Below, piece by piece: positions 3,508 to 48,999 of a stretch of 64,000 nt of DNA; the first letter of the stretch is position 1; each line of letters starts with the position of its first letter. A program made the translations under genes and the position numbers. The stretch lies in the IMG/VR virus record IMGVR_UViG_3300042914_002167. One strand, written 5' to 3'. This DNA is from a virus. The notes beneath the pieces are model-generated. The model ran no database searches and was not told the origin of the DNA. It saw only the letters and a program-made list of their open reading frames with translations.

Positions 3508-3732
3508 ATGAGCGATGAACTAAAAAATGCAATTGCGTCAGTTTTTGAAACTGATCCTTCAGCATTCAAGAGTGCAATTTTTGATATTTTGGGAGCAAAA
3601 GTTTCTGACAAACTCCATGCTGCAAAAGTAGATTACGCATCAAGTGTTTTTGATCAATCTGATGATTCAGATGATGAAGAATACGAAGAAAATTCAATTG
3701 AAACAGGGGAAACAACAGATGAAGAAGTTTAG
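3508..3732 (+). CDS. gp67: Prohead core protein gp67-like
   Basis: Small protein with a helical N-terminus and acidic tail, placed before gp68-21-22-23; SD AAGGAG. Confidence 0.7.
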   Translation: MSDELKNAIASVFETDPSAFKSAIFDILGAKVSDKLHAAKVDYASSVFDQSDDSDDEEYEENSIETGETTDEEV

Positions 3733-5056
3733 TTCTTTCGTTAGTCAACTAGATGAGTTGACTGGCGTTGCACCTAAGTCTAAGGGTGAACACAAGTTCG
3801 TTCACTCAACTTATCTCGCTCAGATCAAAGATCCAGGTGATCTAGAGAAAGTTGGTCCTGAAGAGATTGGTCCTCATGACACGAAAACAGGTTCTGGTAA
3901 GAGACCGGCAGACAGACTAGACAACAAGCAAAAGTTTGGTGAGTCAGTTGACCTAGAAGAGAACTATCGCGTACTTGCACAAAAAGGCATTGGTGCTGAA
4001 AGAAAGCAAGACATCAAGGTTGGTCACGGAGTTGACTATTATCATCCAAAAGATGGGTCTAAGCACATGGGCAAGATTCATGATATGAGTGATAAGGGAT
4101 ATACTGTCAAGGACGACAAGACTGGCGAGAAGCACAAGTTTGATTACTTCAGAAAAGAAGAAGTTGAGCATGTTGAAGAGGGAAGAGGCGCATACGATGA
4201 ACTAGCGAGGCGCATGGGCACTAGCAGCCCCGGATTCAACAAGACTCCTGCTGGCAAAGCTAGAGAACAAAAGCGCAGACAAGAACATCTAAAGGGTCAA
4301 ATGCAGTTCACTCAGAGAATGGGTGGGCTCACTGGTCCTAAGGGTAAGTTGCCAGAAGAAGTTGAACTTGAAGAGGGTTACGAAAAGGTAGTTCTCAACT
4401 TTCTAAAAAATAAAGGCATTGATGCAGATTTCAGGTATGGAAAACTTCATGTTGACAAACGCGACATGCAAAAAGCAAAGTCTGCATTAGCAAAAGCAGA
4501 TTCATTTGATGCGAAAAATTTGCAAATTGTTGCCGAAGAAGTTGAACTAGAAGAAGCCGAAATTCATAAACCAGGAACAAAAGTAAGAGTTCCACACAAC
4601 GGTAAGATGGTTTCTGGTAAAGTCGTAAGACACGATAAGGGTGACAAGCACGGAAGTCCACATTATGTCGTAGATGTGGGTGGCTATCGTTCAGAAAATA
4701 TTCCAGCACACAAAGTTCAAAAAGAAGAAGTTGAACTAGAAGAAGCCGACTTCTCCAAAGCACAGACAACAATGGCACACACAATCGGTAAATACTTCAA
4801 GAAGAAGGGTGTCGGAGACGAATCTAAAGGTGGTCCATTTGCAGTTGCATCAGCAATGGTAAGAGACAAGCCAGCTTCAGCAAAGAAAGCATACACAACA
4901 ATCAAAGCAAAGATGAAGAACGAAGATCATCAAGACATGCTAATGGCACTCTATGATTCTCTAAATGAAGAGAATCAAAGTATGTTTGAGTCTATGATTG
5001 AAACTGATCCAGAAAAACTTCTTGCTTTTGCAGAATCAGTTTTGTCTAAGGAGTAA
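3719..5056 (+). CDS. Modular internal-head polyprotein with repeated EEVELEE linkers
   Basis: Starts MKKFSSFVSQLDE; basic modules separated by ESVDLEE, EEVEHVEE and 3x EEVELEE; located inside the head operon. Confidence 0.65.
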   Translation: MKKFSSFVSQLDELTGVAPKSKGEHKFVHSTYLAQIKDPGDLEKVGPEEIGPHDTKTGSGKRPADRLDNKQKFGESVDLEENYRVLAQKGIGAERKQDIKVGHGVDYYHPKDGSKHMGKIHDMSDKGYTVKDDKTGEKHKFDYFRKEEVEHVEEGRGAYDELARRMGTSSPGFNKTPAGKAREQKRRQEHLKGQMQFTQRMGGLTGPKGKLPEEVELEEGYEKVVLNFLKNKGIDADFRYGKLHVDKRDMQKAKSALAKADSFDAKNLQIVAEEVELEEAEIHKPGTKVRVPHNGKMVSGKVVRHDKGDKHGSPHYVVDVGGYRSENIPAHKVQKEEVELEEADFSKAQTTMAHTIGKYFKKKGVGDESKGGPFAVASAMVRDKPASAKKAYTTIKAKMKNEDHQDMLMALYDSLNEENQSMFESMIETDPEKLLAFAESVLSKE

Positions 5057-5058
5057 TC

Positions 5059-5517
5059 ATGCCAGATGCAGTAACGACACAAGTTCTAAAAGATCACGCT
5101 GGTGGATATGCAGTAAAGCTAACTAACATTTCTGATGGTACAGGTGAAAATAATGTCATCAAAGTTGATGCATCTACACTTGTAGCAAACACTGGAGTTG
5201 GAGCAGAGAGACTTTCAATTACAAAATTGTTGTGGTCTGTTGCATCCGGAACATCTTCAACAATGTCACCTAGAGTTGTTCTATCTTGGGCTGGATCATC
5301 AAACACAGTTATCGCAACACTCACTGGTTCTGGATATTGGGATTTATCATCTGGTGCACAAGCTCCATTCATAAATAATGCACCAACACCAACAGGAGAT
5401 ATTCTGTTGTCTACAGCAGGCTTCACTGCAAATGCTGCATACACAGTTGTCATTGAGGGTAAGAAGGGCGCTGGTTTCGCAAGTCGTGAATCCACTGATG
5501 ATGGTATTTCACCATGA
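5059..5517 (+). CDS. Conserved head-region hypothetical/structural protein
   Basis: 152 aa, beta-rich, SD AAGGAG, between the gp67 region and gp68. Confidence 0.6.
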   Translation: MPDAVTTQVLKDHAGGYAVKLTNISDGTGENNVIKVDASTLVANTGVGAERLSITKLLWSVASGTSSTMSPRVVLSWAGSSNTVIATLTGSGYWDLSSGAQAPFINNAPTPTGDILLSTAGFTANAAYTVVIEGKKGAGFASRESTDDGISP

Positions 5518-5786
5518 TTCGTTTCAAAGAGTTCATTTCTGAAGCTAGAACGGAAAGAGTAAATCGCATCCGTCATGGTAAAATTCAGAAGAGAGTTCTT
5601 GTTAGCAGAGTTCCTGGATACAAAGTAGAAGATGGTAGACTTGTCAAGATGTCATATCAAGAGATAAGACACAGAGAAGTTGCACAGAGAAAAGCTGCTA
5701 GAAAAAGAAAAGCGATGATGAATCAAATCGTCAGAAAAATGAAGATGTCACTGAGAAAAAGAAAAACTGCGGGGTTCAACAAATGA
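5514..5786 (+). CDS. gp68: Prohead core protein gp68-like
   Basis: K/R-rich, N-terminus MIRFKEFISEA, directly upstream of gp21. Confidence 0.65.
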   Translation: MIRFKEFISEARTERVNRIRHGKIQKRVLVSRVPGYKVEDGRLVKMSYQEIRHREVAQRKAARKRKAMMNQIVRKMKMSLRKRKTAGFNK

Positions 5787-6433
5787 AACTAATCACAGAA
5801 CTGGTAGAAGATGTCAAGTATGTAACAGAAGCAACCGAAAATGGAAAGAAAAATCTTTACATTGAGGGCATCTACATGCAGGCTGAGAAACCAAATCGGA
5901 ACGGAAGAATGTATCGCATGGAGACTCTAGAAAGAGAAACAAAGCGTTACAACGAAGAGTATGTTATGAAGGGGCGCGCTTTCGGTGAATTGGGTCATCC
6001 ATCAGGACCAACCATCAATCTAGAAAGAGCATCACACTTGATCAAGTCTCTGAAATCGGAAGGCACGGACTTCTACGGTAGAGCAAAGATTCTAGACACA
6101 CCATACGGAAACATCGTAAAGAACTTGATTGATGAGGGCGCCACACTTGGCGTTTCCACTCGAGGCATGGGAAGTCTAAAAGAGGGCAAAGATGGAGTCA
6201 AGATCGTCGAAGATGATTTCTATCTCGCAACAGCAGCCGATATTGTAGCGGATCCATCAGCACCAGATGCATTCGTTCGCGGCATCATGGAAAGCAAAGA
6301 GTGGGTTTGGGATAACGGTGTCATTCGCGAAATGGACATCAATACATACAAGAATGCTATCAAGAAAGCGTCAAGTAAAGAATTGACTGAAATGAAACTA
6401 AAAGTTTTCAAAGATTTCCTAGGAAAACTTTGA
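5783..6433 (+). CDS. gp21: Prohead protease
   Basis: MKLITE, NRNGRMY, GELGHP, GVSTRGMGSL, DIVADPSAPDAFV. Confidence 0.95.
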   Translation: MKLITELVEDVKYVTEATENGKKNLYIEGIYMQAEKPNRNGRMYRMETLERETKRYNEEYVMKGRAFGELGHPSGPTINLERASHLIKSLKSEGTDFYGRAKILDTPYGNIVKNLIDEGATLGVSTRGMGSLKEGKDGVKIVEDDFYLATAADIVADPSAPDAFVRGIMESKEWVWDNGVIREMDINTYKNAIKKASSKELTEMKLKVFKDFLGKL

Positions 6434-6455
6434 TGAAAGTAGCAAAACATCATTT

Positions 6456-6463
6456 TATAAATA
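6456..6463 (+). promoter_or_regulatory. T4-type late promoter
   Basis: TATAAATA upstream of gp22. Confidence 0.85.
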
Positions 6464-6499
6464 CATAAATGATTGATTCAAATACAAAGGAGAATTCTT

Positions 6500-7234
6500 A
6501 TGGGAATCGAAACTAAAGAACACATTGATGCTCTATTCAGCGGAGAAGAACTATCAGAACAATTCAAAGATCAGGCGAAAGCAATCTTTGAAGCGGCTGT
6601 TCAATCTAAAGTAGAAGAGCACAAGACACAACTAGAAGAAGAGATGGAAGGGCTTCTTGAGCAAAAAACTCTAGAAATCACTGAAACTCTTGTTTCAAAG
6701 ATTGACGACTATCTTGACTATGTTGTGACTGAATGGATGGAAGAAAATAAAGTTGCAATCGAAACTGGTCTAAAAGCTGAAATGGCAGAAGACTTTATGG
6801 TTGGTCTGAAGAATCTATTCACAGAACACTATATCACTATTCCTGAAGATAAAGTTGATATTGTTGAAGGTATGGCTGAAAAAGTCGAATCGCTACAGCA
6901 AGACTTGGATTCAGCGATCACAGAAAGAGCAGAATTGATTGATCAGCTAAACACATACAAGAAGCAACAAATTGCATTTGAAGTTTCAGAAGACCTTTCT
7001 GAAGTTCAGATGGCAAAATTGCAATCGCTGGCAGAACACATTGAGTTTGTGTCTGAGGGTGATTACAAAGAAAAACTTCTTTTGACAAAGAAGAAGTATT
7101 TTGAGTCTAAGGAATCCGAAGACTCGGTGATCGATTCACAAAGTAGTCTTGATTCCGAAGAATCTCTGGACGAATCATTCTCACCAGTAATGAGCCGTTA
7201 TGTACAGAGCATTTCAAGAAATGTGAAAAAGTAA
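6500..7234 (+). CDS. gp22: Prohead core scaffold protein
   Basis: Acidic coiled coil with ALFSGEELSE, IFEAAV, DYLDYVVTEWMEEN; between gp21 and gp23. Confidence 0.92.
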   Translation: MGIETKEHIDALFSGEELSEQFKDQAKAIFEAAVQSKVEEHKTQLEEEMEGLLEQKTLEITETLVSKIDDYLDYVVTEWMEENKVAIETGLKAEMAEDFMVGLKNLFTEHYITIPEDKVDIVEGMAEKVESLQQDLDSAITERAELIDQLNTYKKQQIAFEVSEDLSEVQMAKLQSLAEHIEFVSEGDYKEKLLLTKKKYFESKESEDSVIDSQSSLDSEESLDESFSPVMSRYVQSISRNVKK

Positions 7235-7239
7235 ATTTT

Positions 7240-7247
7240 TATAAATA
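7240..7247 (+). promoter_or_regulatory. T4-type late promoter
   Basis: TATAAATA upstream of gp23. Confidence 0.85.
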
Positions 7248-7284
7248 ACATCAGAGTTTTACAAATACTCAAAGGAGAAAACTT

Positions 7285-8598
7285 ATGTCAGTAGAAGCAC
7301 TTGTAAAAAAATGGAGTCCAGTTCTTGAACACTCTGAACTATCAGCAATCAAGGACAATCACAGAAGAGCGGTTACCGCACAACTTCTAGAGAACCAAGA
7401 AATCGCACTTCGCGAAGGTTCTTCAGGCGGATATCAGTCACAATCATCACTGTTGTCAGAAGCAGCCCCAACAAACAACATGGGTCTATCTTCTTCAACA
7501 GCTGGTCAAGGTGGTATCGACACATACGATCCAGTTCTAATCAGCTTGGTTCGTCGTGCAATGCCAAATCTTATCGCGTATGACATCTGCGGCGTTCAGC
7601 CAATGACTGGTCCTACAGGCTTGATCTTCGCAATGCGTTCTAACTACACAGTACAGCGTGGTACAGAAGCACTGTTCAACGAAGCAAATACAGCATTCTC
7701 TGGTGTCGGTGGTCAAGCTGGGTCTACACCTGCTCTTGCTAACGCTACAAACTACACATACGGCACAGCAATGTCTACTATACGTGCAGAATCATTGGGT
7801 GATGGCACAAACGCATTCGCTGAAATGGCATTCACAATCGACAAGATTGCTGTTACTGCTAAGAGCCGTGCATTGAAGGCAGAGTACACAATGGAATTGG
7901 CACAAGACTTGAAGGCAATTCACGGTCTTGACGCTGAACAAGAATTGTCAAACATTCTTTCCACAGAAATTCTTGCTGAAATCAACCGTGAAGTTGTTCG
8001 TACAATCAACTCTACAGCTACTGTTGGCGCACAAGAAAACGTTGCAATCGCAGGTACATTCGACCTAGACGTTGACGCTAACGGTCGTTGGTCTGTTGAG
8101 AAGTTCAAGGGTCTAATGTTCCAACTAGAGCGCGAAGCTAACGCAATTGCTAAGGCAACTCGTCGCGGTAAGGGTAACGTTATGATCTGTTCTTCTGACG
8201 TTGCATCAGCACTTCAGATGGCAGGTGTTCTTGACTACACTCCAGCACTTGCAAACAACTTGCAAGTTGACGACACAGGCAATACATTCGCAGGTGTTCT
8301 AAACGGTCGTGTCAAGGTTTACATCGATCCATATTTCGCAGCATCTGCTGGCGTTCACTACGCAACTATGGGTTACAAGGGAACTTCAGCATTTGACGCT
8401 GGTTTGTTCTACTGCCCATACGTTCCACTACAGATGGTTCGTGCTGTCGGTCAAGACACATTCCAACCTAAGATTGGCTTCAAGACACGTTACGGCATGG
8501 TTGCAAACCCATTCGCAACATCTGCTGGCGATGGCGCTGTAGCATTCGCTAATAAGAATCTGTACTATCGCAGATTCGCGATTACAAACTTGATGTAA
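7285..8598 (+). CDS. gp23: Major capsid protein
   Basis: LVRRAMPNLIAYDICGVQPMTGPTGLIFAMR, KSRALKAEYT, FQPKIGFKTRYG. Confidence 0.98.
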   Translation: MSVEALVKKWSPVLEHSELSAIKDNHRRAVTAQLLENQEIALREGSSGGYQSQSSLLSEAAPTNNMGLSSSTAGQGGIDTYDPVLISLVRRAMPNLIAYDICGVQPMTGPTGLIFAMRSNYTVQRGTEALFNEANTAFSGVGGQAGSTPALANATNYTYGTAMSTIRAESLGDGTNAFAEMAFTIDKIAVTAKSRALKAEYTMELAQDLKAIHGLDAEQELSNILSTEILAEINREVVRTINSTATVGAQENVAIAGTFDLDVDANGRWSVEKFKGLMFQLEREANAIAKATRRGKGNVMICSSDVASALQMAGVLDYTPALANNLQVDDTGNTFAGVLNGRVKVYIDPYFAASAGVHYATMGYKGTSAFDAGLFYCPYVPLQMVRAVGQDTFQPKIGFKTRYGMVANPFATSAGDGAVAFANKNLYYRRFAITNLM

Positions 8599-8626
8599 TC
8601 AATATAGCCGACATAGATCGGAATTC

Positions 8627-8655
8627 AAAGAGGCTCTTCGGAGCCTCTTTTTTTT
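8627..8655 (+). terminator. Rho-independent terminator with cUUCGg tetraloop
   Basis: AGAGGCTC-TTCG-GAGCCTCT followed by a T run, after gp23. Confidence 0.92.
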
Positions 8656-8694
8656 GTCTCATAAATATATGCATATTTCAGACAAGAGGATGAC

Positions 8695-9213
8695 ATGGCA
8701 GAATTTTATAAAGAACCAATCAACAAGAGTTTTCTCTCAAATAATAAGTTTGAGTTTTCTATTCAGAGACTACCAAACTTCACCTTTTTTGTGCAGTCTG
8801 TTAATATTCCCAGTTTGACACTATTTGATAGTCGCATTGCTTCTCCATTCACAAGAGTTCAGGTGCCTGGTAACCAAATTGATTATGGAGAGTTGAGTCT
8901 CACTGTCATTATGGATGAAGATTTTCATGCATGGTTTGAACTCTACAATTGGATGACTAACTTAGGTAATCCAGAATCGTATGACAAAAGAGGCACATTG
9001 ACAAATACAGCAGGAAGAATAAACAGCGTCACTTCTGATGCTTCATTGATTGTAAAGACAAACTCAAACAATCCAAACTTCATTATAAACTTCAAAGATG
9101 TCTTTCCTGTCTCTATGTCCGATCTGACTTTCAGCGCGACAGAATCACAAGATTTTCTAACAATCTCAAGCACATTCTCATATACATCATATTCAGCAAG
9201 AAAGTATTCTTGA
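8695..9213 (+). CDS. gp3: Tail completion/sheath stabiliser
   Basis: FLSNNKFEF..RLPN..FFVQSVNIP, tail-tube-like fold; position after gp23. Confidence 0.8.
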   Translation: MAEFYKEPINKSFLSNNKFEFSIQRLPNFTFFVQSVNIPSLTLFDSRIASPFTRVQVPGNQIDYGELSLTVIMDEDFHAWFELYNWMTNLGNPESYDKRGTLTNTAGRINSVTSDASLIVKTNSNNPNFIINFKDVFPVSMSDLTFSATESQDFLTISSTFSYTSYSARKYS

Positions 9214-9238
9214 CTTTTATATCATTATGTGATATTAT
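9210..9238 (+). promoter_or_regulatory. Sigma70-like promoter
   Basis: TTGACT-17-TATTAT upstream of uvsY. Confidence 0.65.
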
Positions 9239-9270
9239 AATGACAATATGTATTGACTTGAGGACTTGTA

Positions 9271-9708
9271 ATGACATTAGACCAGATATCAGAGGAATGG
9301 CGAAAAGACGCAGGAATAGATTCAACAGAACTTGGGGCTGAATCACTGAAGATTCCTCAACTCCATAGTAAGTTCATGAAGATTTACTTTGATGAGAGAC
9401 AAAGACTTCGTGCTTATGAATTCAAGAGCAAGGCAACATTCCTCAAGAAGTATGAATACTACAATGGGCGAATGTCTCGCGAAGAACTTGAAGAAGCGGG
9501 ATGGGAGCCTTTTGTCAAGAAACTCATGAAGAATGAGGTTGACATGTATGTAGACTCCGATGCAGACATCGTTGATGTAAACATGAGAATCGTAGCACAG
9601 AAAGAAAAAATTGATTTTCTAGAAGAAGTGTTGAAGAATCTCAATCAGAGAAACTATCAGATAAAAAATGCAATTGATTGGCAGCGTTTTACCAATGGCG
9701 TCAACTGA
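9271..9708 (+). CDS. uvsY: Recombination mediator UvsY
   Basis: ESLKIPQLHSK, YEYYNG, RNYQIKNAIDW. Confidence 0.9.
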   Translation: MTLDQISEEWRKDAGIDSTELGAESLKIPQLHSKFMKIYFDERQRLRAYEFKSKATFLKKYEYYNGRMSREELEEAGWEPFVKKLMKNEVDMYVDSDADIVDVNMRIVAQKEKIDFLEEVLKNLNQRNYQIKNAIDWQRFTNGVN

Positions 9709-11152: not shown

Positions 11153-11153
11153 T

Positions 11154-11549
11154 ATGATTCAAACGGAAGAAGTAGATGGCGGAAGAGTCTTGATTCTGAA
11201 ACTTTCTAGTGGCGAAACAGTTGTTGGATCTGTTGTTAAAGAAACTCAAGGATACATTGAATTGAGTAATCCATTCAAACTGCTTATGGTTTATAATGGA
11301 GCATCAATGAATCTGACTATCATCCGTTGGGACATGGCTATTGACTTTAATTATCCAGTTCGTGTGTTCAAGAACACAATTGTGGCATGTGCTAAACCAA
11401 AAGATGAGATGGTGGCAGCCTACACTGAGGTTGTTGTAAGCGATGCAGACACCAGCGAAGAGGAATCTTCAACAGAAAATGACTTGCAGACTATTCAGGA
11501 TGAGGTCAGTGATCTCATCATGCAAGCTAAAAGAAGTAAACTACATTAA
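11154..11549 (+). CDS. Conserved hypothetical protein (Sm-like)
   Basis: ILKLSSGETVVG; usual position between uvsW and gp55. Confidence 0.6.
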   Translation: MIQTEEVDGGRVLILKLSSGETVVGSVVKETQGYIELSNPFKLLMVYNGASMNLTIIRWDMAIDFNYPVRVFKNTIVACAKPKDEMVAAYTEVVVSDADTSEEESSTENDLQTIQDEVSDLIMQAKRSKLH

Positions 11550-11574
11550 GTATACTTACTCTAACCCTTTGCAG

Positions 11575-11616
11575 AGGGTACACAGTGAATGTAACAGGTT
11601 GTCAAGTGAAAGTCAA
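11575..11616 (-). promoter_or_regulatory. Antisense sigma70-like promoter, copy 1
   Basis: Minus strand reads TTGACT-17-TACATT with an extended TG; near-identical copy at 43683-43723. Confidence 0.6.
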
Positions 11617-11634
11617 TGAAAAATAAGGAATATT

Positions 11635-38101: not shown

Positions 38102-38119
38102 CACGCTCAAGGAGCAGAC

Positions 38120-38752: not shown

Positions 38753-38763
38753 AGGATCATCAA

Positions 38764-38919: not shown

Positions 38920-38937
38920 ATAACCCAAAACTTGACA

Positions 38938-39512: not shown

Positions 39513-39524
39513 TAACCTAGTTCT

Positions 39525-39556
39525 TATAAATAGCCTGTCAGCACGACAGGCTATTT
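39525..39556 (+). promoter_or_regulatory. Late promoter overlapping a hairpin
   Basis: TATAAATA at 39525 overlaps AAATAGCCTGTC-AGCAC-GACAGGCTATTT. Confidence 0.7.
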
Positions 39557-39573
39557 TGTTTATAGGGGCGCAG

Positions 39574-40560
39574 ATGGCAAATCTATCGGTAGGCGAAATA
39601 CAAAAGAGAGCAGGTAGAATAGAGACTTTGCTTAGAAAACTCGCCAATGGAGAATCGTTTGAGACTACACGCGGGCAGTTTGCCGCTAATCAACTTTATC
39701 ACTACAAGAAAAAAGTTCTAATTGGAGTTTATTCACCTAATGATAAGAAGCAATTTGATGCTGCACAAAAAGCATTGAATAGTGCGGGTGTTGGTGATGA
39801 ATTTTACATCGGCGTTCAGTTTTCAAAGACACACGGTGTTCCACTAACGCAACTTGTAAAGAATGTTGAGTTTGGAGGTAAAGGTAGTGGCGGCTCTCTT
39901 CAGGCGGAAACCGTAGCGATCAAACAATTACAAGAAGCGATAGATGAAGCTATCAAGCAAAACAAAGGTCCTATTGCAGTAAAAGCGGCAGGCAAAGTAC
40001 ACAAGAACATTGTTGGTGTTGAGAAGACTAACGGAACCCCAAAGTCAGATTTTCATCTTATAGATAACACGGGCGCAGCAGTCATCTGGATCAGCCACAA
40101 AGACGGTAGAGGACCAAAAGACTTCCAGCAGTGGGGTGGAATTTCACAAAGGTCTGAACCAACAATCTTCAATCATCATGAGACACAGACATTCATAAAT
40201 GACCTGAAGAAGTTCTACCCAAACGGGCTCCCTCCAGCAACGACACTCTATAGAAAAATTGCAGACAAGGGATTGAAGATGTTGAGTGTGTATGGTAATC
40301 AGTATCCTTCTGGTAGACTTGGTGAGCAGAACGTAAGCGTCCTTCTGCAAGGACCACCTGGTGTAAAGAAGGCGGGAATGCAATACGAACTAACAGCAAA
40401 CCACGTACACTACAACGGAGACTCAGTTGATGACGGTGGTTTTGAACCAGTCCTGATGGCCATCTACAAAGGCGATAGATCGGATGCTGGTATAAAAGGA
40501 ACAAGAATCGTTATCTCTCCTATCATGGGGCGTAAAGGAACGGAGTGGCCTTCACCGTGA
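39574..40560 (+). CDS. PD-(D/E)xK-like nuclease-fold protein
   Basis: E...TPKSDF...WISHK...FQQWGG. Confidence 0.5.
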   Translation: MANLSVGEIQKRAGRIETLLRKLANGESFETTRGQFAANQLYHYKKKVLIGVYSPNDKKQFDAAQKALNSAGVGDEFYIGVQFSKTHGVPLTQLVKNVEFGGKGSGGSLQAETVAIKQLQEAIDEAIKQNKGPIAVKAAGKVHKNIVGVEKTNGTPKSDFHLIDNTGAAVIWISHKDGRGPKDFQQWGGISQRSEPTIFNHHETQTFINDLKKFYPNGLPPATTLYRKIADKGLKMLSVYGNQYPSGRLGEQNVSVLLQGPPGVKKAGMQYELTANHVHYNGDSVDDGGFEPVLMAIYKGDRSDAGIKGTRIVISPIMGRKGTEWPSP

Positions 40561-41138
40561 AATCATTCAAAGAATACATAGCAGAAGCGAAAGGAGACTT
40601 ATCTACTACAGAGAAGGCTCTTTTGGACAAATACAATGAAAACAAAAAAATGTATGGTCATACTCATATTCCTATTCAGGGTAAGCGTGAGCATGATGCA
40701 GCTAAGAAATTAGTTGCGAAGGGTCATGCGAAAGAGTATAAAAACATGAGTGGGTTGTCTAAGGGTGAATACAAGATAAGCCCATTTACTCGTAAGGCAT
40801 ACACCACTAAAGATTTGTTTGTATACGGCGGAGAACTGGTGTTCGAACCCACTGTTGGAGACATTACATCTGAGTTCATCAATAGATACAAAGATGATCC
40901 TAAGGGCGTATACAATCAAGCTAAAGCGGCATACTTAGACGCAGTAAGTGCAGCAAAGTCTCATTCCGTGAAAGCTGCGGAACTGCACAAGTCACACGAA
41001 ACTATGTCCAAAATAGAATTTCAAAATTCTGTGATGAAGCACTTCGGTAAACATCTGAAGAAGTATGGATTTCCAAAACATGCATCTAAGGGATGGGGAG
41101 ATGCGGAGCATGATCTTCTAAAAGAACTATCAAAATGA
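40557..41138 (+). CDS. Putative internal (capsid-packaged) protein
   Basis: GTG start, MKSFKEYIAEA, basic protein. Confidence 0.6.
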   Translation: MKSFKEYIAEAKGDLSTTEKALLDKYNENKKMYGHTHIPIQGKREHDAAKKLVAKGHAKEYKNMSGLSKGEYKISPFTRKAYTTKDLFVYGGELVFEPTVGDITSEFINRYKDDPKGVYNQAKAAYLDAVSAAKSHSVKAAELHKSHETMSKIEFQNSVMKHFGKHLKKYGFPKHASKGWGDAEHDLLKELSK

Positions 41139-42364
41139 AATCATTCAAAGAACACATAAGTGAAGAGAAAAATCTTCACATGGAACACGGTGAAGACCTT
41201 GTTCTAAATGCAGGAGTCAAAGGCACACGCGAGGTGATCAATTCACTCCGTGCAGTTCGCGATATGCTGGCTGGTAACTCAACAAAGAAAGTTGATGTGA
41301 CAGTCAAGTGGGATGGTGCACCTGCTATCTTCGCTGGGCAAGATCCAAGAGATGGAAAGTTCTTCATCGCAAAGAAGGGTATCTTCAACAAGAATCCTAA
41401 GCTATACAAAACGAATGCTGAGATTGACGCAGACACATCTGGTGATCTTGCAGACAAACTAAAAGCATGTCTCCGATACCTACCTGAACTAGGCATCAAA
41501 GGAGTTGTGCAAGGTGATTTGCTATACACTAGAGAAGACATCAAAGATGCTACTATTGATGATGTGGAGTACATCACATTCCATCCAAACACCATCGTAT
41601 ACGCAGTGCCTAAAGCTAGTGATCTCGCTAAGAGAATTCTGTCAAGCAAGATTGGTCTTGCATGGCACACAATCTACGAAGGCGACTCTCTAGAAACAAT
41701 GAAGGCTGTGTTCGGAAAGAACATCGTTGGATCATTCAGTGCATCTAGAAACGTATGGTCAACCGACGTTGACTACAAAGACGTATCTGGCAAAGCAACA
41801 ATGACTGCTGAAGAGACTGCACAAGTCACCGAGTTGCTATCTCAAGCAGGAAAGTTGTTCTACAAACTTGACGCAAAGATTCTGAATGGCATCTCAGATG
41901 ACGAAGAACTCCTGATGCGAATCAAGACATTCAACAACATGAAGGTTCGCGCACAACAAAGAATCACGAATGTTGCAGCACACGTATCTGGATTGATTGA
42001 GTACATGAACGGCATCTACTCAAAAGAAGAACAAGAAAAGAAGACAGAAAAAGGCAAGTCTGCTGTTCAACAGAGAGCAAAGAAAGTCTTGTCATTCTTC
42101 AATCCAAAGAGCAAGAAGCAACTAGAGAATATCTTCACGATGATGAATCTTCTAGTTGACGCAAAGCAGATGTTGATAGATAAGTTGAACGAAGTCAAAA
42201 AGCTGGACACATTCTTGTTGACTAAGAACGGATACAAAGTCACTGGCGTAGAAGGCTACGTAGCAATTGACAAGCTATCCGGTAACGCTGTAAAATTGGT
42301 GGACAGAATGACGTTTAGTTACGCAAACTTCTCACCTGACGTAATCAAGGGATGGGAGAGATGA
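41135..42364 (+). CDS. Ligase-fold nucleotidyltransferase (DUF6267-like) with capsid-targeting N-terminus
   Basis: MKSFKEHISEE; KWDG, QGDL, EGYV, VKLVDR. Confidence 0.65.
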   Translation: MKSFKEHISEEKNLHMEHGEDLVLNAGVKGTREVINSLRAVRDMLAGNSTKKVDVTVKWDGAPAIFAGQDPRDGKFFIAKKGIFNKNPKLYKTNAEIDADTSGDLADKLKACLRYLPELGIKGVVQGDLLYTREDIKDATIDDVEYITFHPNTIVYAVPKASDLAKRILSSKIGLAWHTIYEGDSLETMKAVFGKNIVGSFSASRNVWSTDVDYKDVSGKATMTAEETAQVTELLSQAGKLFYKLDAKILNGISDDEELLMRIKTFNNMKVRAQQRITNVAAHVSGLIEYMNGIYSKEEQEKKTEKGKSAVQQRAKKVLSFFNPKSKKQLENIFTMMNLLVDAKQMLIDKLNEVKKLDTFLLTKNGYKVTGVEGYVAIDKLSGNAVKLVDRMTFSYANFSPDVIKGWER

Positions 42365-43666
42365 ATGGCACAATTTAATAAAAATACACACACATACTTA
42401 GATCAAGCAAAGACACTCTTTGAAGTAGTCATGCTGGCTGACCAGTATGGTAACAGAGTCGGTCCTGCTAATCCAACTGGTGTTGCAGTTGATGCATTTG
42501 GTAGAGGCAGAACATCATCTCCACTAACTCTGTTTGATTCTTCCCACAGATACAAAGACAACGGATTGTGGTCAACAGCAAACACAGCAAACACCACGAT
42601 TGTGTTTTCACCCAACGAGGGGCTTATCAATCTCACATTGACAAACGGCACTGCAAATGCAGAGATTGTTCGTGAAACAACAAAGGTGATGTCATATCAA
42701 CCAGGCAAGTCTTTGCTCTCAATGAACACGTTTGTAATGTCTCCAGCCAAGACAAATCTAAGGCAAAGAATCGGTTATTTCGGCGCAAACAACGGAGTAT
42801 TCCTAGAGCAATCAGGAAACACTGTAAGTTTCGTTGAACGTTCGATTGTCAGTGGTGCAGTAGTTGACACGCCAGTTACACAAGCAAACTGGAATCTAGA
42901 TCCACTAGACGGCACAGGACCATCTAAGTTGACATTGAATCTCGCACAAGCGCAGATTTTCTGGGCTGATATTGAGTGGCTAGGAGTTGGATCGGTGAGA
43001 TGCGGATTCGTCATCAACGGGCAGTTGATTCACTGCCACTCATTCCATCATGCAAACATACTGTCTTCAACATACATCACAACAGCATCATTGCCGGTGC
43101 GTTATGAGATAAAGAACACAGGAACAGTCTCTGGTGGATCAACACTAAAGCAAATCTGTTCTACTGTAATCTCTGAAGGTGGATATGAACTTCGTGGTGA
43201 TCAGAGGGCAGTTGGCACACCAGTCCAAACACCAAAGTCATTGGCGACAGCGGGTACGTACTATCCAGTTGTATCTCTTCAGTTGAAAGCTGCTAATCTA
43301 GACGGAATTGCAATCCTTACTGCGTTATCTATTCTTGGAATAAACTCAAATCCCACAAGTATAGCATGGAGAGTTATTAGAGGCGGAACATTGAACTCTC
43401 CGTCATGGAGCCCATCAGATGGTTCTGTTGAGTATGATCTATCTGCAACAGGCATATCAGGTGGTCAAGTTATGGCTCAGGGATATGTTGGTATCACGAA
43501 CCAATCATCACAGACAATTGATGTTCTGAAAGAAGCATTGTTCAAGTTTCAATTGCAACGTAATGGATTGACTGGTACTCCAGAACCCATTACACTAGCA
43601 CTCGCTGCATCCGTGAACAATGTACAATGTCTAGGTTCTATGGATTGGGAAGAGATATCTAGATAA
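42365..43666 (+). CDS. Beta-rich virion structural protein
   Basis: DAFGR..S.P.TLFDS, YQPGKS, EWLGVGSVRCGF. Confidence 0.6.
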   Translation: MAQFNKNTHTYLDQAKTLFEVVMLADQYGNRVGPANPTGVAVDAFGRGRTSSPLTLFDSSHRYKDNGLWSTANTANTTIVFSPNEGLINLTLTNGTANAEIVRETTKVMSYQPGKSLLSMNTFVMSPAKTNLRQRIGYFGANNGVFLEQSGNTVSFVERSIVSGAVVDTPVTQANWNLDPLDGTGPSKLTLNLAQAQIFWADIEWLGVGSVRCGFVINGQLIHCHSFHHANILSSTYITTASLPVRYEIKNTGTVSGGSTLKQICSTVISEGGYELRGDQRAVGTPVQTPKSLATAGTYYPVVSLQLKAANLDGIAILTALSILGINSNPTSIAWRVIRGGTLNSPSWSPSDGSVEYDLSATGISGGQVMAQGYVGITNQSSQTIDVLKEALFKFQLQRNGLTGTPEPITLALAASVNNVQCLGSMDWEEISR

Positions 43667-43682
43667 GATTATTCATTGTCAT

Positions 43683-43723
43683 AGGGTACACAGTAATGTA
43701 ACATAGTGTCAAGTCAAAGTCAA
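43683..43723 (-). promoter_or_regulatory. Antisense sigma70-like promoter, copy 2
   Basis: Minus strand reads TTGACT-17-TACATT followed by ACTGTGTACCCT, as in copy 1. Confidence 0.6.
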
Positions 43724-43739
43724 GCAAAGAATCGGTAAT

Positions 43740-43747
43740 TATAAATA
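43740..43747 (+). promoter_or_regulatory. T4-type late promoter
   Basis: TATAAATA. Confidence 0.8.
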
Positions 43748-43807
43748 GAATATCAGCAGTTAGGTTAAGGCAAACCTGCTAGGATAAGCCCAAGGGAACC
43801 TCCAAGC

Positions 43808-46102
43808 ATGAAAAAATTCAAAACACATCTCACTGAAGCGAAAAAGTCTACCGTTGTGGTGTCATTCGGAAGAATGAATCCGATGACAAACGGGCACGAA
43901 AAACTCGCAAACAAACTCAAGTCAGAAGCTGCATCGCGTAGCGCAGACGCAAAGTTATATCTCTCACATTCCACTAATCCCAAAAAAGATCCTCTGTCGT
44001 TTGACGCTAAAGTCAAATTCGCAAAGAAGGCTTTTGGTCCAATGGTGCAGAACTCAGTAGCACGAACTATCATTGAAGTTGCTAAAGAGTTGACTGGTAA
44101 GTATTCCAATCTTGTGGTTGTTGTTGGCAGTGATCGTGTTCCAGAATTCAGAACATTGCTTGAGAAATACAACGGCAAAGACTTCACATTTGATTCCATT
44201 GAAATTGTATCCGCCGGAGAAAGAGATCCAGACGCAGAGGGCGTAGAGGGTATGTCTGGATCAAAGATGCGCAAGTTTGCAGCAGATGAAGACTTTGCGA
44301 ACTTCAAACAGGGTGTTCCATCTAAGTTGTCTGACTCAGACGCAAAAGAACTCTATAACGCAGTGAGAAAGGGCATGAAGTTGGACGAAAGCGTTGAACT
44401 GGAAGAGGGCGAACAGACTACAGCAGACTACAAAGTAAGCAAGAGTGGTAAGAAGTATCCTGCACACAGAATCGTCTTGGGAAAGAAAAGAAAAGAAGAT
44501 GATGAAGAGTCTGAAGAAGACGATAAGGAAGATGTGAAAGAAGCAGTTCTCAACTACTCTCAGCGTATGATGAGAGCGACAAGATTCAAGCGTCTCCAGA
44601 AGAGAGTGCAAAGAGCAAGAACCCTTGCAATGAGAAGATATGCAAATCCTGAGCGTTTGAAACAACGATCTCTGAAGATGGCAAGAAACTTCTTGAGAAT
44701 GCACATGGCTGGAGGCAAACAGTATTCCAATCTTTCCACTGGTGAAAAGATTTCAGTAGACACAAGAATGCAGAGACTTGCGCCTGTGATCAAGAAACTG
44801 GCCGCACGACTAATGCCAACTGTCAGACAAAAAGAAACACTGCGTCATGTCGTTGGTTCATCCGTCAAAGAAGAAACTCAAATCAATGAACTGGCGTATC
44901 AAGGAAACATCGGTGCAATGGAAATGTTTGCTTTCTTCCAGAAGGCAACAGATGAACAAAAGAAACAGATGAAAGCGTTGATTGGTGCAGGTAAAGATAG
45001 AGAAGCATGGAAGTTGATTCACAAAGTCACGGGTGTCAAGTTGGTTGGTCCTCAGTTTGAACAGTATCTGATGGAGCAAGAAGAAGAGGAAGAAGACGAA
45101 ACTGAGATTGATGGTCTAGAGATGATCCAGATTGAACTTCGCGCAATGATTGAAGATGCGAGAAGTTTGCTAGTGACAATTAGTAATATGGAAGAAGAGC
45201 CAGAAGCATGGGTTCAATCTAAAGTCAGTCTCGCCACAGATTACATTGCAAGCGTCAAAGATTATCTTGAGTTCTCTGATGATGATGATGAAGAAGAAGA
45301 TGATGACGAAAGCGAAGATGATTACGCAGACGCTGAAGATGCAATGTATGGAATGGAAACAGAGGGATTTGAGTCTGATCTAGAACATATCGTAGAAACG
45401 CTAAACGCACTTCACAAGAAATCCGAAAAGAGTGGAATTGACTATTCAACTATCCGAGAAGTATACTTGAGGGGTCTTCAATCATATGATGAATCTGCAT
45501 CAATGACTCCACAACAATGGGCATTTGCTAGAGTCAATTCATTCGTCAGTGGCGGTGCTACAATCAAGCACGATGATGCTGATTTATGGGAGTCTGTTCA
45601 GAGAAACAATAAGTTCTCACAGTTTGCAGAGGGTGTTCTTGAGTACGGCACAGATGCAGCTAGATTAGCCTATGCTAGAGCAACACCCGGGCAGAGCCAA
45701 GAAATCACGATGGCTAGATACTCAGCAGATAAAGCACTAGAAGCAATCAACAGTGCAAATCTTCAGAGAGCATTCAAGTTGTACAGCGAAGAAGCGTGTT
45801 GCGATGAGTGTCAAGATGAAATCGTTGAAGAAGTAGATTGGGATCTAGTTCTTCACGAAGCGCAGTATCAGGGCAAAGACGTTACGCTAAACAAGCCATT
45901 CTACACACCAGATGGACCAAAGAAGTCTGCGGTGTACACAATGGGACCAAACGATAAAGTTGTGATTGTTCGTTTCGGTGATCCTAATATGGAAATCAAA
46001 AAAGACAATCCAGAGAGAAGAAAGAGTTTCCGTGCAAGACATAATTGCGACGAACCAGGACCAAAGTGGAAAGCAAAATACTGGTCTTGCGCAGCATGGT
46101 AA
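43808..46102 (+). CDS. HxGH nucleotidyltransferase fused to multiple small modules (polyprotein-like)
   Basis: MKKFKTHLTEA; FGRMNPMTNGH, VVGSDR, SAGERDPD, MSGSKMR; linkers ESVELEE, QINE, VLHE; C-terminal RKSFRARHNC..YWSC. Confidence 0.75.
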   Translation: MKKFKTHLTEAKKSTVVVSFGRMNPMTNGHEKLANKLKSEAASRSADAKLYLSHSTNPKKDPLSFDAKVKFAKKAFGPMVQNSVARTIIEVAKELTGKYSNLVVVVGSDRVPEFRTLLEKYNGKDFTFDSIEIVSAGERDPDAEGVEGMSGSKMRKFAADEDFANFKQGVPSKLSDSDAKELYNAVRKGMKLDESVELEEGEQTTADYKVSKSGKKYPAHRIVLGKKRKEDDEESEEDDKEDVKEAVLNYSQRMMRATRFKRLQKRVQRARTLAMRRYANPERLKQRSLKMARNFLRMHMAGGKQYSNLSTGEKISVDTRMQRLAPVIKKLAARLMPTVRQKETLRHVVGSSVKEETQINELAYQGNIGAMEMFAFFQKATDEQKKQMKALIGAGKDREAWKLIHKVTGVKLVGPQFEQYLMEQEEEEEDETEIDGLEMIQIELRAMIEDARSLLVTISNMEEEPEAWVQSKVSLATDYIASVKDYLEFSDDDDEEEDDDESEDDYADAEDAMYGMETEGFESDLEHIVETLNALHKKSEKSGIDYSTIREVYLRGLQSYDESASMTPQQWAFARVNSFVSGGATIKHDDADLWESVQRNNKFSQFAEGVLEYGTDAARLAYARATPGQSQEITMARYSADKALEAINSANLQRAFKLYSEEACCDECQDEIVEEVDWDLVLHEAQYQGKDVTLNKPFYTPDGPKKSAVYTMGPNDKVVIVRFGDPNMEIKKDNPERRKSFRARHNCDEPGPKWKAKYWSCAAW

Positions 46103-46134
46103 AGAACAACACATACAATCAAGGAGATATCAAC

Positions 46135-47202
46135 ATGTCACTAGCAAACAAATTTGGAATTCCACAGGGTCTTCTGGACGCATCAAAAGCAGCCTTGGAT
46201 GAAGCGAATGAGTATCAGAAGAAAGTTCAAGCACACATGGCAAAAAAAGGCATCAAGTCAATGAGCGATATGACTGCTGACCAGAAGAAGAAGTTCTTCA
46301 ATGAACTAGATGCCATGCACACAGCAAAGCATGAAGAAGTTGAATCTGTCGAAGAGGAACTAAAGGGCGATATGCACCCAGGAGCAAAAAAGGTTCTAAA
46401 GCACATCAAGCCAGAGCATCAAGACAAGTACAAGCCTTACCTAAAGAAGGGCGTATACAGGGGCGACTATAAGGATCGTGCTGCTGTATTGAGTGCCGCT
46501 GAGAGAGCGAAGCATACCAATGAAGAGTATTTTGCCGAGGAAGAAGAACTTGAAGAATTGGCAATCTCACCTGCCGCAAGAAGAGATGCTTACGAAAGAC
46601 AAGCGGATTATCATCGCTCGCGTGATGAAGATGATGTTTCACCAAGCGCAGATTTGCACAAGCACAAGTTGAAGACTCTACATCGCGCACACGAACTCCA
46701 TTCAATGCATCAAGGTACTGCCGACACTAGCAATAAAGATGAAAAGTCTGACTTCCATAATGCGACAAAAACAATGCGCAGAATTGAAAAGCATGTTGCT
46801 GCAAAGTACGGTAAAAAAGAAGCGGGTAGACTACAAAGAGGAGACTATAGAGAAGAAGTCTCTCTAGATGACTTTTCCCCTAAAGACATTGAATCCTTCA
46901 TGCAGACTGAAGACTACAATCAATTGGATGAGTTGAGCAAGAACACACTAGCGAGTTACATCAAAAAGCGCAGTCATGATGTTGCTGCAATGGGCGCAGT
47001 CACACGCAAACACGCTATGGACTCTGAGGCTGCTAGAAAAGATCAGAACTACTCCCAAGCAAAAAAGAGTAACGACAAATCAAACAGAGCCTTCATGAAG
47101 GGTTGGAAGCACCGTGAAAATATCGGTAAGGCTGTAGACAAACTGACCAAAGAAGAGTTTGAATTCATTGAGTCTTTGAACGCAGGAACTGCTAAGGAAT
47201 AA
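46135..47202 (+). CDS. Modular basic internal-protein-like polyprotein
   Basis: SD AAGGAG; linkers ALDE, EEVESVEE, EEELEE, QLDE-LSKNTLASYIKK. Confidence 0.6.
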   Translation: MSLANKFGIPQGLLDASKAALDEANEYQKKVQAHMAKKGIKSMSDMTADQKKKFFNELDAMHTAKHEEVESVEEELKGDMHPGAKKVLKHIKPEHQDKYKPYLKKGVYRGDYKDRAAVLSAAERAKHTNEEYFAEEEELEELAISPAARRDAYERQADYHRSRDEDDVSPSADLHKHKLKTLHRAHELHSMHQGTADTSNKDEKSDFHNATKTMRRIEKHVAAKYGKKEAGRLQRGDYREEVSLDDFSPKDIESFMQTEDYNQLDELSKNTLASYIKKRSHDVAAMGAVTRKHAMDSEAARKDQNYSQAKKSNDKSNRAFMKGWKHRENIGKAVDKLTKEEFEFIESLNAGTAKE

Positions 47203-47205
47203 AAC

Positions 47206-48999
47206 ATGAAAACGATAAAGGAACTTCTTGGGCTGTCAGAAGCCAAAAAGAAAAATATGAAGGGTGAAGACCCTTGCTGGGACAACTACGAAATGGTCGG
47301 CACAAAGAAGAAGAACGGCAAAGAAGTTCCTAATTGTGTGCCAAAGAATGAAGAACTTGAACTTGAAGAAGGTTCAATGGCAAGTCAATGGAAGTCTGGT
47401 GCAAAGTCTATCAAGAAAGGTTCCGTAGAACTTGTTCGTGGGCAAGGCGTTCATACAATCAAGAAAGACGGAAAAGAGATTGGTGACTTTTCTCTTGACG
47501 ACGATGCTGGCAATTGGGTTATCAACTGGAACAAGAAGAAGCCTGGGCGCGGGCAAGGTGTTCATGATCATATTGACGACATCGTAGATGCTGCATTGAA
47601 AGAAGAAGTTGAAATCTACGAAGCCAAAGTCGGAGACACAGTTTCTTTCCATCACGAATTGAAAGCTGCGCCTGGCACTAAGATGAAGAAGAGTGGAACT
47701 GTAGAGAAGGTTCGGGGCGACGATGTTCTTGTGAAAGTCAAGGACAGATATGGCGTCAAGCGCCATCAAGTCAAGATGAGTGATCTTGTCAAAGAGAACT
47801 TTGGCGCAGACTTCCTAGCTATGGCAAGACAGAAGAATCCAAATGCGCGCCTAGTTACTCCTGAGCAGAAGAAAAAAGAAGCTGAAGAGTTGGCAAAGAA
47901 GAGGGCTGGGCTAAAGCCAACACATGCTGCTCCTACAGGCAACTCTCGCCCATTGGGTGGATACGATCCTAAGTCTAATCGTTCATACTCAGAAGAAGTT
48001 GAGAGTGTGGCGGAAGCAAGTCCAAAAGACAAAATTAAAGACGATGACAAACCATTCAATTACGCCGACTGGGCCAAGAGTGGCAAAAAACCTCGCGCAC
48101 TACCAGGTTGGGGTCCTAAGGGTTTTAGCACCCGGCTGTTCAAAGATGACCCTAAAGGCAAGAAAGATAAAGACCAAGGTGTGACGGAAGGAGTAGAACA
48201 AGTTGACGAACTAAACAAAGACACTGTTTACTCATACAACAAGAAGTCAACAGCAGAGACAGAAAAACTCCACAAGAAACTCGGCGAATTCATTCGTAGC
48301 AACAAACCATCAGAGGCTAACAAAACTGCACACAAGTTGAACAAGAGAGTTGCTGGGCAAGAACGCGCAGATGCTAGAATGAACACTGAAGAAACTGTAG
48401 TTGAAGAAGCACCTTCAATTCATGTGAGAACGTCATACACTCAAGCTTACGCAAAGCATCATAAGACTGGAAAGAAACCTTCCGAAGCCGTCGCAGCAGC
48501 CTATGAAGATGTTGCGAAGAAACATGGCTATGACATGGTAAAAAAACTAAAAGCACACCATGCAGCAAATGAGCAAGTTGAGACTGCTGCACAAGTGGTA
48601 AAGCACTTTGAGAAGGGGCAATCTACTCCTTCTGGTGTGCCTAAGTGGGTCGCAGAGCCACTAAAGAAAAAAAAGAAAGTGCAAGAAGCGGGTGATCCAG
48701 AAATGATGGGTGGTGCGGTTAGTAGACCGACTGCTTCAGGAAACAATCCAAAACTTGCAGACAAGTTCATGAAGGCTTTCAAAAAGATGAAGTCTCCAGC
48801 CAATATTTCATGTAAGACAGTTGGCATGACTTCTACATGTGAAGACACTGAGCAAGAATTCAATAATATGTTCACCGAAGCAATGAAGAAAAAGCCAGAA
48901 CCAAATTCTAAACAGAATTTGAAGAAAGGTGAAAAACTGAGCGGAAAGCAAGAGCCTATAACAATTTCTCCAGAGATTGAGAAAAAAGGCGTTGCATAA
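47206..48999 (+). CDS. Modular basic internal-protein-like polyprotein
   Basis: MKTIKELLGLSEA; DPCWDNY...VPNCVP; linkers EELELEE, EEVEIYE, EEVESVAE, VEQVDE, ETVVEE. Confidence 0.6.
   Translation: MKTIKELLGLSEAKKKNMKGEDPCWDNYEMVGTKKKNGKEVPNCVPKNEELELEEGSMASQWKSGAKSIKKGSVELVRGQGVHTIKKDGKEIGDFSLDDDAGNWVINWNKKKPGRGQGVHDHIDDIVDAALKEEVEIYEAKVGDTVSFHHELKAAPGTKMKKSGTVEKVRGDDVLVKVKDRYGVKRHQVKMSDLVKENFGADFLAMARQKNPNARLVTPEQKKKEAEELAKKRAGLKPTHAAPTGNSRPLGGYDPKSNRSYSEEVESVAEASPKDKIKDDDKPFNYADWAKSGKKPRALPGWGPKGFSTRLFKDDPKGKKDKDQGVTEGVEQVDELNKDTVYSYNKKSTAETEKLHKKLGEFIRSNKPSEANKTAHKLNKRVAGQERADARMNTEETVVEEAPSIHVRTSYTQAYAKHHKTGKKPSEAVAAAYEDVAKKHGYDMVKKLKAHHAANEQVETAAQVVKHFEKGQSTPSGVPKWVAEPLKKKKKVQEAGDPEMMGGAVSRPTASGNNPKLADKFMKAFKKMKSPANISCKTVGMTSTCEDTEQEFNNMFTEAMKKKPEPNSKQNLKKGEKLSGKQEPITISPEIEKKGVA

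Follow-up and report, generated by a model that had tools for sequence, protein, structure and literature searches.

Why does an uncultured T4-like phage from lake water carry, among its putative late genes, long chains of small, unrelated and mostly basic modules joined by short acidic linkers? The question is raised by IMG/VR virus record IMGVR_UViG_3300042914_002167, of which a window of 64,000 nucleotides (the whole stretch of DNA analysed, to which all positions refer) was used. An initial annotation had read four large open reading frames (ORFs) of this window, at 3719-5056, 43808-46102, 46135-47202 and 47206-48999 (here P0001 to P0004), as capsid-targeted polyproteins cut by the prohead protease gp21. 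The four ORFs translate as described there, and every acidic linker quoted was located in them. With a probability of roughly 0.65, they represent the T4 internal-protein system in polyprotein form, i.e. late-expressed precursors of cargo for the phage head. Because modules are swapped exactly at the linkers in related phages, this phage probably has an exchangeable set of small proteins, which would be packed, cut and delivered. Packaging and cutting are inferred, with good support, from convergent sequence, structural, evolutionary and indirect proteomic lines.

The layout of the four chains is as follows (the tag is the N-terminal targeting peptide treated below; a slash marks a predicted cut or junction).

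3719..5056, + strand: P0001, 445 residues; tag at residues 1-13, modules A (14-74), B (82-146), C (155-212), D (220-272) and E (280-335), and the constant C-terminal module F (343-445)
3941..3961, + strand: P0001 linker 1, ESVDLEE, predicted cut after Glu81
4157..4180, + strand: P0001 linker 2, EEVEHVEE, predicted cut after Glu154
4355..4375, + strand: P0001 linker 3, EEVELEE, left edge of a 180-nt stretch missing in another lake population
4535..4555, + strand: P0001 linker 4, EEVELEE, start of a 26-nt exact DNA repeat that also begins at linker 5
4724..4744, + strand: P0001 linker 5, EEVELEE, preceding module F
3962..4156, + strand: module B, Tudor/SH3-like small beta-barrel (by structure comparison)
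4376..4534, + strand: module D, small alpha/beta domain (pLDDT 91-93), missing in P0006 (a 99%-identical relative) and in a run X4 contig
43808..46102, + strand: P0002, 764 residues; tag MKKFKTHLTE/A, NMNAT/cytidylyltransferase-like domain, linker ESVELEE, basic helical part, DUF5824 and a C-terminal domain after LHE/A
44387..44407, + strand: P0002 linker ESVELEE, the sole canonical linker of this protein
46135..47202, + strand: P0003, 355 residues; non-canonical N-terminus ending ALDE/A, last module (about residues 256-350) very widespread
46333-46356 and 46537-46557, + strand: P0003 linkers EEVESVEE and EEEELEE, respectively (from the translation)
47206..48999, + strand: P0004, 597 residues; tag-like MKTIKELLGLSE/A, a mini-module with a Cys pair, four linkers
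47350, 47602, 47992 and 48187, + strand: P0004 linkers EELELEE, EEVEIYE, EEVESVAE and EGVEQVDE, respectively (from the translation)
48016-48186, + strand: P0004 cassette slot, with content that varies among near-identical relatives

The module cores of P0001 are 53-103 residues long with net charges of +2 to +9, the C-terminal module (-1) being the exception. The description of all four ORFs as chains of mini-modules had to be narrowed: it holds for the linker-joined chains other than P0002, which is an enzyme-bearing protein with one canonical linker and continues beyond it as a larger multidomain chain. Several unrelated domains were seen in one phage-encoded chain that is predicted to be packaged. 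The polyprotein reading is supported in part, by the T4-type tag, the gp21 homologue, the L/I/V-x-Glu linkers, the module starts after Glu and the mosaicism, and is amended in the details of P0002 and P0003.

A strict linker expression applied to all + strand ORFs of the window gave nine matches, all of them in P0001-P0004, and back-translated linker DNA patterns matched the window five times (0.00 expected from 100 shuffles). Relatives were collected by searches with P0001 (244 of similar length and 218 shorter), P0004 (423) and P0003 (831 cluster representatives); most database matches cover only parts of the query polyprotein. Strict linkers numbered 554 in 357 relatives against 13 in shuffled sequences (about 40-fold), and the core EEVE-x-[LIVMF]-[DE]-E occurred 309 times in the same relatives against 0.1 in the shuffles. 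In 352 unique linker contexts the third residue before the predicted cut (P3) is always L, I, V or M (L 193, I 95, V 44) and P2 is either D (213) or E (139), while P1 is E in 344 and D in 8, although the search expression permitted either acid. A strict Glu at P1 beside mixed Asp and Glu at P2 points to a Glu-specific protease and not merely to an acidic spacer.

Module starts were scored by module-by-module BLAST, which replaced an automatic clustering based on splitting at strict linkers, as the latter missed looser linkers and merged many segments. Between 77 and 100% of the 24-199 starts scored per module lie directly after [LIVMF]-x-Glu (background 0.028). The counts were 189/199 for module F, 122/134 for module A and 34/34 for module B; for two modules of P0004 they were 57/57 (residues 336-396) and 45/59 (residues 140-197), all 59 starts of the latter following Glu. 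Module F is preceded by a tag (ISE/ADFSK) or by a linker (LEE/ADFSK), so that tag junction and linker junction are interchangeable. Inside 112 non-redundant module cores [LIV]-x-E was found 25 times against 42.5 expected (z = -3.0), the lowest value of nine motifs.

The capsid targeting sequence of T4 is MKTYQEFIAE (10.1101/2021.01.19.427310). Residues 4 and 7 were found genetically to govern targeting and residues 8 and 10 processing, which is blocked by Asp at position 10 (P1) (PMC9026906); the T4 tag and its processing by gp21 are already known (PMC9026906, PMC3012670). The same pattern of about ten residues (aromatic at 4 and 7, hydrophobic at 8, Glu at 10) was found here. The P0001 family yielded 84 unique N-termini; 83 have F at position 4, 76 have F at position 7 and 72 have I, L or V at position 8. 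The 48 unique IMG/VR N-termini of DUF6267 proteins have F or L at 4, F or Y at 7 (46 of 48), L or I at 8 (48) and Glu10 (48). The strict tag was present in 134 + strand ORFs of 80 DUF6267 loci and in 0/2283 reverse-strand control frames. In the AlphaFold model of the DUF6267 protein (pLDDT 84) residues 1-15 form a disordered stretch apart from the folded part. The six tag-like N-termini pointed out by the initial annotation are all present, at 3719, 5514, 40557 (GTG start), 41135, 43808 and 47206; the MK-type start does not extend to P0003, which begins differently. Only some late genes are tagged: gp23, gp22 and the structural protein at 42365 have no tag. Two of the tagged genes and this untagged neighbour lie in the second cluster.

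40557..41138, + strand: 193-residue protein with a GTG start; KSFKEYIAE after the initiator, the closest to the T4 tag MKTYQEFIAE
41135..42364, + strand: DUF6267 protein (Pfam, E = 4e-106), start MKSFKEHISE; putative ligase-like nucleotidyltransferase with an invariant K-x-D-G
42365..43666, + strand: untagged virion structural protein (PHROG 1645, E = 1.6e-140)

The prohead protease and the major capsid protein are encoded in the same operon as P0001.

5783..6433, + strand: gp21 prohead protease (PHROG 207, E = 1e-80; T4 gp21 structure 5JBL, E = 2.4e-26)
7285..8598, + strand: gp23 major capsid protein, predicted maturation site LLSE59/A60 at 7450-7464

The gp21 homologue retains the GELGH and GVS motifs, with His and Ser as in wild-type T4 (the crystallised T4 gp21 chain, 5JBL, has Ala at both positions). 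A site of the same kind as the linkers had been claimed for gp23 and is indeed there (LLSE/AAPT, Glu59 at 7459-7461). Cleavage by gp21 is stated in the T4 gp23 record. LLSE/A is aligned with T4 FLTE/AEIG column for column; in T4 the cut falls after Glu65.

Colinear orthologues without module-level variation had been named in the initial annotation as an outcome that would speak against it. The orthologues are not colinear, and whole modules are gained, lost and swapped at linkers. The P0001 family ranges from tag + F (115 residues) and tag + A + F (about 175 residues) to at least six modules; the one mature cargo per gene that marks T4 internal proteins was not found, P0001 having six modules and its relatives from none to at least six. 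Exactly module D is missing from P0006, a protein with 99% identity to P0001. In a contig of run X4 (4.8 kb, depth 58.6, from a different lake study) position 4354 is joined to 4535, exactly 180 nt (4355-4534) being skipped, and 14 letters at the joint are common to both sides, i.e. the joint lies within the repeated linker. The run X2 assembly contains the full P0001 form with no differences. In P0245, P0246 and P0253 different cassettes occupy the single P0004 slot between EEVESV(A/T)E and EGVEQVDE; apart from the slot, P0245 hardly differs from P0004 (91% identity overall), P0246 has 78% identity, and in P0253 a further module is missing as well. P0018, a protein of the head-operon type, has two modules that sit in P0004 in this window, so modules move between loci. 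With the linker acting as both cleavage site and short DNA repeat, modules would be insertable, deletable and exchangeable by recombination with their neighbours undisturbed, and the gene would behave as an expandable cassette array.

The cassette of P0253 contains a long hydrophobic stretch resembling a membrane span, and none of the remaining cassettes observed at this position has one. Run X2 also gave a second joint (4176 to 4721), which was left out of the argument: the 1.8-kb contig concerned matches only the linkers at 4157-4180 and 4724-4744, over just 23 nt on each side, and has 484 nt of a different sequence in the middle. It probably comes from a further gene that shares linkers, carried by a co-occurring phage, and shows that linker DNA is common to different genes.

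The AlphaFold model of P0001 resembles beads on a string. Confidence is low at, or right beside, each of the last four linkers, whereas linker 1 falls within a larger low-confidence, disordered region of module A. Module D is a confidently predicted small alpha/beta domain and F a helical bundle; modules A and C are basic and for the most part disordered. Module B is a five-stranded small barrel of Tudor/SH3-like fold, comparable to the SMN Tudor domain 1g5v at the level of the fold only (VIA Z = 6.1, root-mean-square deviation 1.5 A over 48/56 residues; Foldseek TM score 0.64-0.72, normalised to the target). For neither the P0001 nor the DUF6267 model did Foldseek find a PDB match at E <= 0.001, and the VIA matches had middling Z. 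The 112 module cores have a mean net charge of +8 (97% positive), which is near zero with the linker attached.

Very few modules in 95 relatives were recognised by Pfam, namely as HicA toxin, ribosome modulation factor (RMF), KOW, DUF6321 and DUF3008. Linker-flanked modules of P0110 and P0289 matched HicA toxin (E = 2.6e-12) and RMF (best E = 4e-5 among the 95 relatives, an RMF-like stretch being read in P0289); they are candidate translation-directed cargo. Module F had no PHROG or Pfam family, and its matches in the protein atlas (<=0.82) are to unnamed viral clusters. Neither P0001 nor a minimal family member of 92 residues had a tblastn match in cultured phages. In DUF6267, K58, D60 and G61 (K-x-D-G) are invariant in 30 sequences, and the long structural matches of the model are all to adenylyltransferase domains of RNA or DNA ligases (Z only 7.0-7.9 over 171-204 residues). 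The model is thus suggestive of an RNA/DNA ligase-like nucleotidyltransferase; no significant sequence match to any solved structure was found for DUF6267 or the NMNAT-like domain.

Cultured relatives add indirect proteomic evidence. P0002 contains, as its first domain, a homologue of the 'cytidylyltransferase/NMNAT' of cyanophages (48% identity over 188 residues to S-SCSM1 ORF91), and NMNAT-like proteins were found by mass spectrometry in virions of S-SCSM1, S-SZBM1, S-CBWM1 and S-CREM2 (PMC9602691, PMC10665884). The S-SCSM1 protein starts with MKSFLQFLKE/A, i.e. with the tag pattern; ORFs 89, 90, 92 and 93 of the same phage are annotated as virion proteins, and ORF89 and ORF92 contain the linkers EEVENVDE and EEVELDE. 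In Methylophilales phage Melnitz and Stenotrophomonas phage DLP_6 the same cluster is present; it includes tagged proteins and contains a few linkers. The papers on these cultured phages make no mention of a targeting peptide. One DLP_6 gene (7034-8335), annotated as 'exodeoxyribonuclease VII large subunit', encodes a chain rich in His and Lys that contains the linker EEVDQIDE; it seems to belong to the polyprotein class, and its exonuclease annotation is probably wrong.

The genes concerned lie in three clusters, each preceded, as the initial annotation had it, by a T4-type late promoter. The sequence TATAAATA occurs seven times on the + strand of the window and not at all on the - strand.

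3481..3488, + strand: late promoter TATAAATA (exact match), preceding the head-core operon
39525..39532, + strand: late promoter TATAAATA (exact match) of the second cluster
43740..43747, + strand: late promoter TATAAATA (exact match) before P0002-P0004
3508..3732, + strand: 74-residue gp67-like prohead core protein, helical N-terminal part and acidic tail, overlapping the P0001 ATG by 14 nt
5059..5517, + strand: conserved 152-residue neighbour without assigned function, between polyprotein and gp21 in loci L001-L006 (by synteny)
5514..5786, + strand: very basic 90-residue gp68-like protein, start MIRFKEFISE (PHROG 3503 'head scaffolding protein', E = 7.7e-5)
6473..7234, + strand: gp22 scaffold (PHROG 237, E = 5e-74)

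The head-core operon runs from the promoter at 3481 through the gp67-like ORF, P0001, the 152-residue gene, the gp68-like gene, gp21 and gp22 to gp23. The order polyprotein/152-residue gene/gp21/gp22/gp23 recurs in the related IMG/VR loci L001-L006 as far as the contigs reach. The second cluster (39.5-49 kb) contains a PHROG 13937 protein, the 193-residue tagged protein, DUF6267, the untagged virion structural protein, a promoter and P0002-P0004. Late expression of the clusters would fit both the head-core operon and the promoters. The 74-residue ORF has a weak match to PHROG 1064 'prohead' (E = 0.0036) and a composition like that of T4 gp67. P0001 had been considered as an expanded gp67 orthologue, an idea that was dropped because this separate gp67-like ORF was found. 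The basic tail of the 90-residue protein resembles that of T4 gp68.

The proposed mechanism is of graded strength in its parts. A short N-terminal peptide of the T4 type would bring each chain into the assembling prohead core, and this targeting is very probable. The gp21 protease would then take off the targeting peptide and cut behind the last Glu of each acidic linker (consensus E-E-V-E-(x)-L/I/V-D/E-E); judged by the linker sequences, such cleavage is probable, if slightly less so. One targeting event would in this way yield several small proteins, mostly basic and of about 6-10 kDa, that stay with the DNA, and larger tagged enzymes (the NMNAT-like and the ligase-like DUF6267 proteins) would be loaded by the same route. 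The products would presumably be ejected with the DNA; by analogy with T4, retention in the head and ejection into the host are about evenly balanced between true and false. Effector, anti-defence or DNA-condensing roles for the modules, argued from the same analogy and from a few suggestive modules of relatives (HicA-like, RMF-like), are speculative.

Cutting by gp21 would also be expected if the chains were sacrificial core or scaffold which, like T4 gp22, gp67 and gp68, fills space, sets head size or balances charge, the fragments leaving the head or neutralising DNA and not being directed at the host. This is the main rival and we think it unlikely. The uniform basic charge of the module cores and the operon position of P0001 (between the gp67-like and gp68-like genes, near gp21 and gp22) keep it, or a role as DNA counter-ion, alive; most modules are without a known family, and in T4 the core proteins are cleaved into several pieces, most of which leave the head (PMC9026906). 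The modules, however, are folded domains (a Tudor-like barrel, an alpha/beta domain) and not simple peptides, their turnover as cassettes between near-identical phages would be unusual for structural filler, and HicA-like and RMF-like modules occur in relatives. Tagged enzymes are present in the second cluster, and homologues of the NMNAT-like one stay in purified cyanophage virions.

That the chains are uncleaved multidomain proteins of the head or virion, the acidic stretches being flexible spacers with an incidental likeness to gp21 sites, is more improbable still. Spacers would hardly require Glu at P1 (344 against 8 Asp) while P2 alternates between Asp and Glu, or L, I, V or M at every P3; nor would they account for modules that begin right behind Glu in hundreds of different contexts, for tag and linker junctions that are interchangeable before module F or for the depletion of the motif within module cores. 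Acidic low-complexity linkers are nevertheless common in multidomain proteins, and the variable P1' would suit such an origin. We give very little credit to the idea that these are late cytoplasmic proteins that are never packaged, their N-terminal motif serving translation initiation or folding of late genes. Abundant late proteins can contaminate CsCl-purified virions, as the authors of the cyanophage proteomes point out (PMC9602691, PMC10665884), but all four positions mapped by function in the T4 targeting peptide are reproduced in the motif, which is disordered and outside the fold and is found on only a subset of late genes. The NMNAT-like proteins, moreover, recur in four independent virion proteomes.

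Several observations weigh against the reading of the chains as cleaved cargo precursors. P1' varies (A 101, L 70, G 33, E 32) and is less uniform than in classic Glu-Ala bonds. Control motifs are also low in the module cores (z = -1.7 to -2.0), so that the depletion of [LIV]-x-E is only modestly stronger and is supportive, not decisive. A cut after the last Glu would leave an acidic tail on each basic module. In the DUF6267 loci the strict ten-residue tag is present in only 3/30 ORFs with two or more linkers, many linker-bearing relatives start otherwise, and P0003 has no canonical tag. Most relatives are metagenome assemblies, in which repeated linkers could in principle give chimeric joins, although the repeats are only 21-26 nt long.

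The nearest known system is that of the T4 internal proteins IPI, IPII, IPIII and Alt, with which the chains share the ten-residue tag pattern, a gp21-type protease, the L/I-x-Glu motif of the (here predicted) cuts, putatively late genes, predicted basic products and a cargo that varies strongly among related phages. T4 has one cargo per gene, whereas up to about six unrelated modules per tag, with conserved acidic linkers between them, are found here, and the mature parts have no sequence similarity to the T4 proteins. T4 gp22, gp67 and gp68 are alike in operon position, in multiple gp21 sites within one chain (the cuts being predicted here) and in acidic stretches; they differ in being conserved scaffold with fragments that mostly leave the head, in contrast to the folded, basic and hypervariable cassettes of this phage.

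Polyvalent proteins (PMC5512222; Iyer, Burroughs, Aravind 2017) likewise join many unrelated domains in one polypeptide with predicted packaging alongside the DNA and proposed proteolytic release. Theirs are large enzymatic domains (MuF, ART, ArdC-N, methylases) with embedded peptidases, whereas mini-domains are joined here and the prohead protease is proposed to act in trans on a dedicated linker; T4-like phages enter that account only by way of Alt (PMC5512222). Pfam scans of the four ORFs and 95 relatives detected no MuF, ART, ArdC-N, Zn-peptidase, methylase or helicase domain and no embedded peptidase for self-release. In the giant phages phiKZ, 201phi2-1 and SPN3US the prohead protease also cuts packaged proteins, among them ejection proteins, after Glu at several sites (PMC10052503); their motif is A-x-E, the cuts remove or shred propeptides, and they have no repeated linker or cassette array. 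The NMNAT/cytidylyltransferase of cyanomyoviruses (S-SCSM1 ORF91 and others) is homologous to the first domain of P0002, carries the same tag and was seen in virions, yet the corresponding papers call its virion association unexplained or possible contamination and mention neither targeting peptide nor linkers. A literature search turned up no earlier account of cargo polyproteins joined by linkers in T4-like phages.

If the cargo-precursor reading is correct, the targeting and gp21 logic that was worked out only in T-even coliphages would be a general loading system of abundant aquatic T4-like phages (here the group containing the Kyanoviridae cyanophages and the pelagiphages). The polyprotein format would multiply the cargo per targeting event and make it evolvable by cassette exchange, the recurrence of NMNAT-like enzymes in cyanophage virion proteomes would be explained, and hundreds of small unannotated proteins would become candidates for the first phage proteins to enter the host cell. 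It would also suggest a ready-made way of loading T4-type capsids with several proteins. A more far-reaching version, which we put forward tentatively and at somewhat worse than even odds, is a plug-and-play effector array at the protein level in lake and ocean T4-like phages, with one tag, a linker that is both protease and recombination site, and a co-injected set. This set would draw on a pool of HicA-like and RMF-like toxins, Tudor-like binders and tagged enzymes (for NAD salvage, and RNA-ligase-like) by which host defences would be forestalled, a counterpart of polymorphic-toxin and integron cassette systems.

The gp23 of the window is 68% identical to those of DLP_6 and Melnitz and 66% identical to that of Pelagibacter phage Mosig. 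Near-identical DNA is contained in lake-water metagenomes of several studies; a megablast search with 43000-49500 gave no close DNA relative among cultured phages. The 152-residue protein (5059-5517) had no family match, and its homologues among cultured phages were found only in the pelagiphages Mosig and HTVC008M. In Mosig (L017, 3893-5008) four separate small untagged genes for acidic or neutral proteins replace the single polyprotein between the portal gene and the homologue of the 152-residue gene, and gp22 is enlarged to 410 residues with a Lys/Glu-rich N-terminal part.

A hairpin (GCCTGTC...GACAGGC) followed by a T-run at 39533-39573 (+ strand), right after the promoter at 39525 and before the ATG at 39574, resembles an intrinsic terminator. 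Just upstream of the head-core operon, at the position of the T4 portal gene, lies an ORF (1611-3473, + strand) for a Ser/Thr-rich protein of 620 residues without a PHROG match, with degenerate TESANA(E/V)F(V/A)STLSE repeats and a folded C-terminal part of about 120 residues. The repeated L-S-E of this protein also fits the protease motif.

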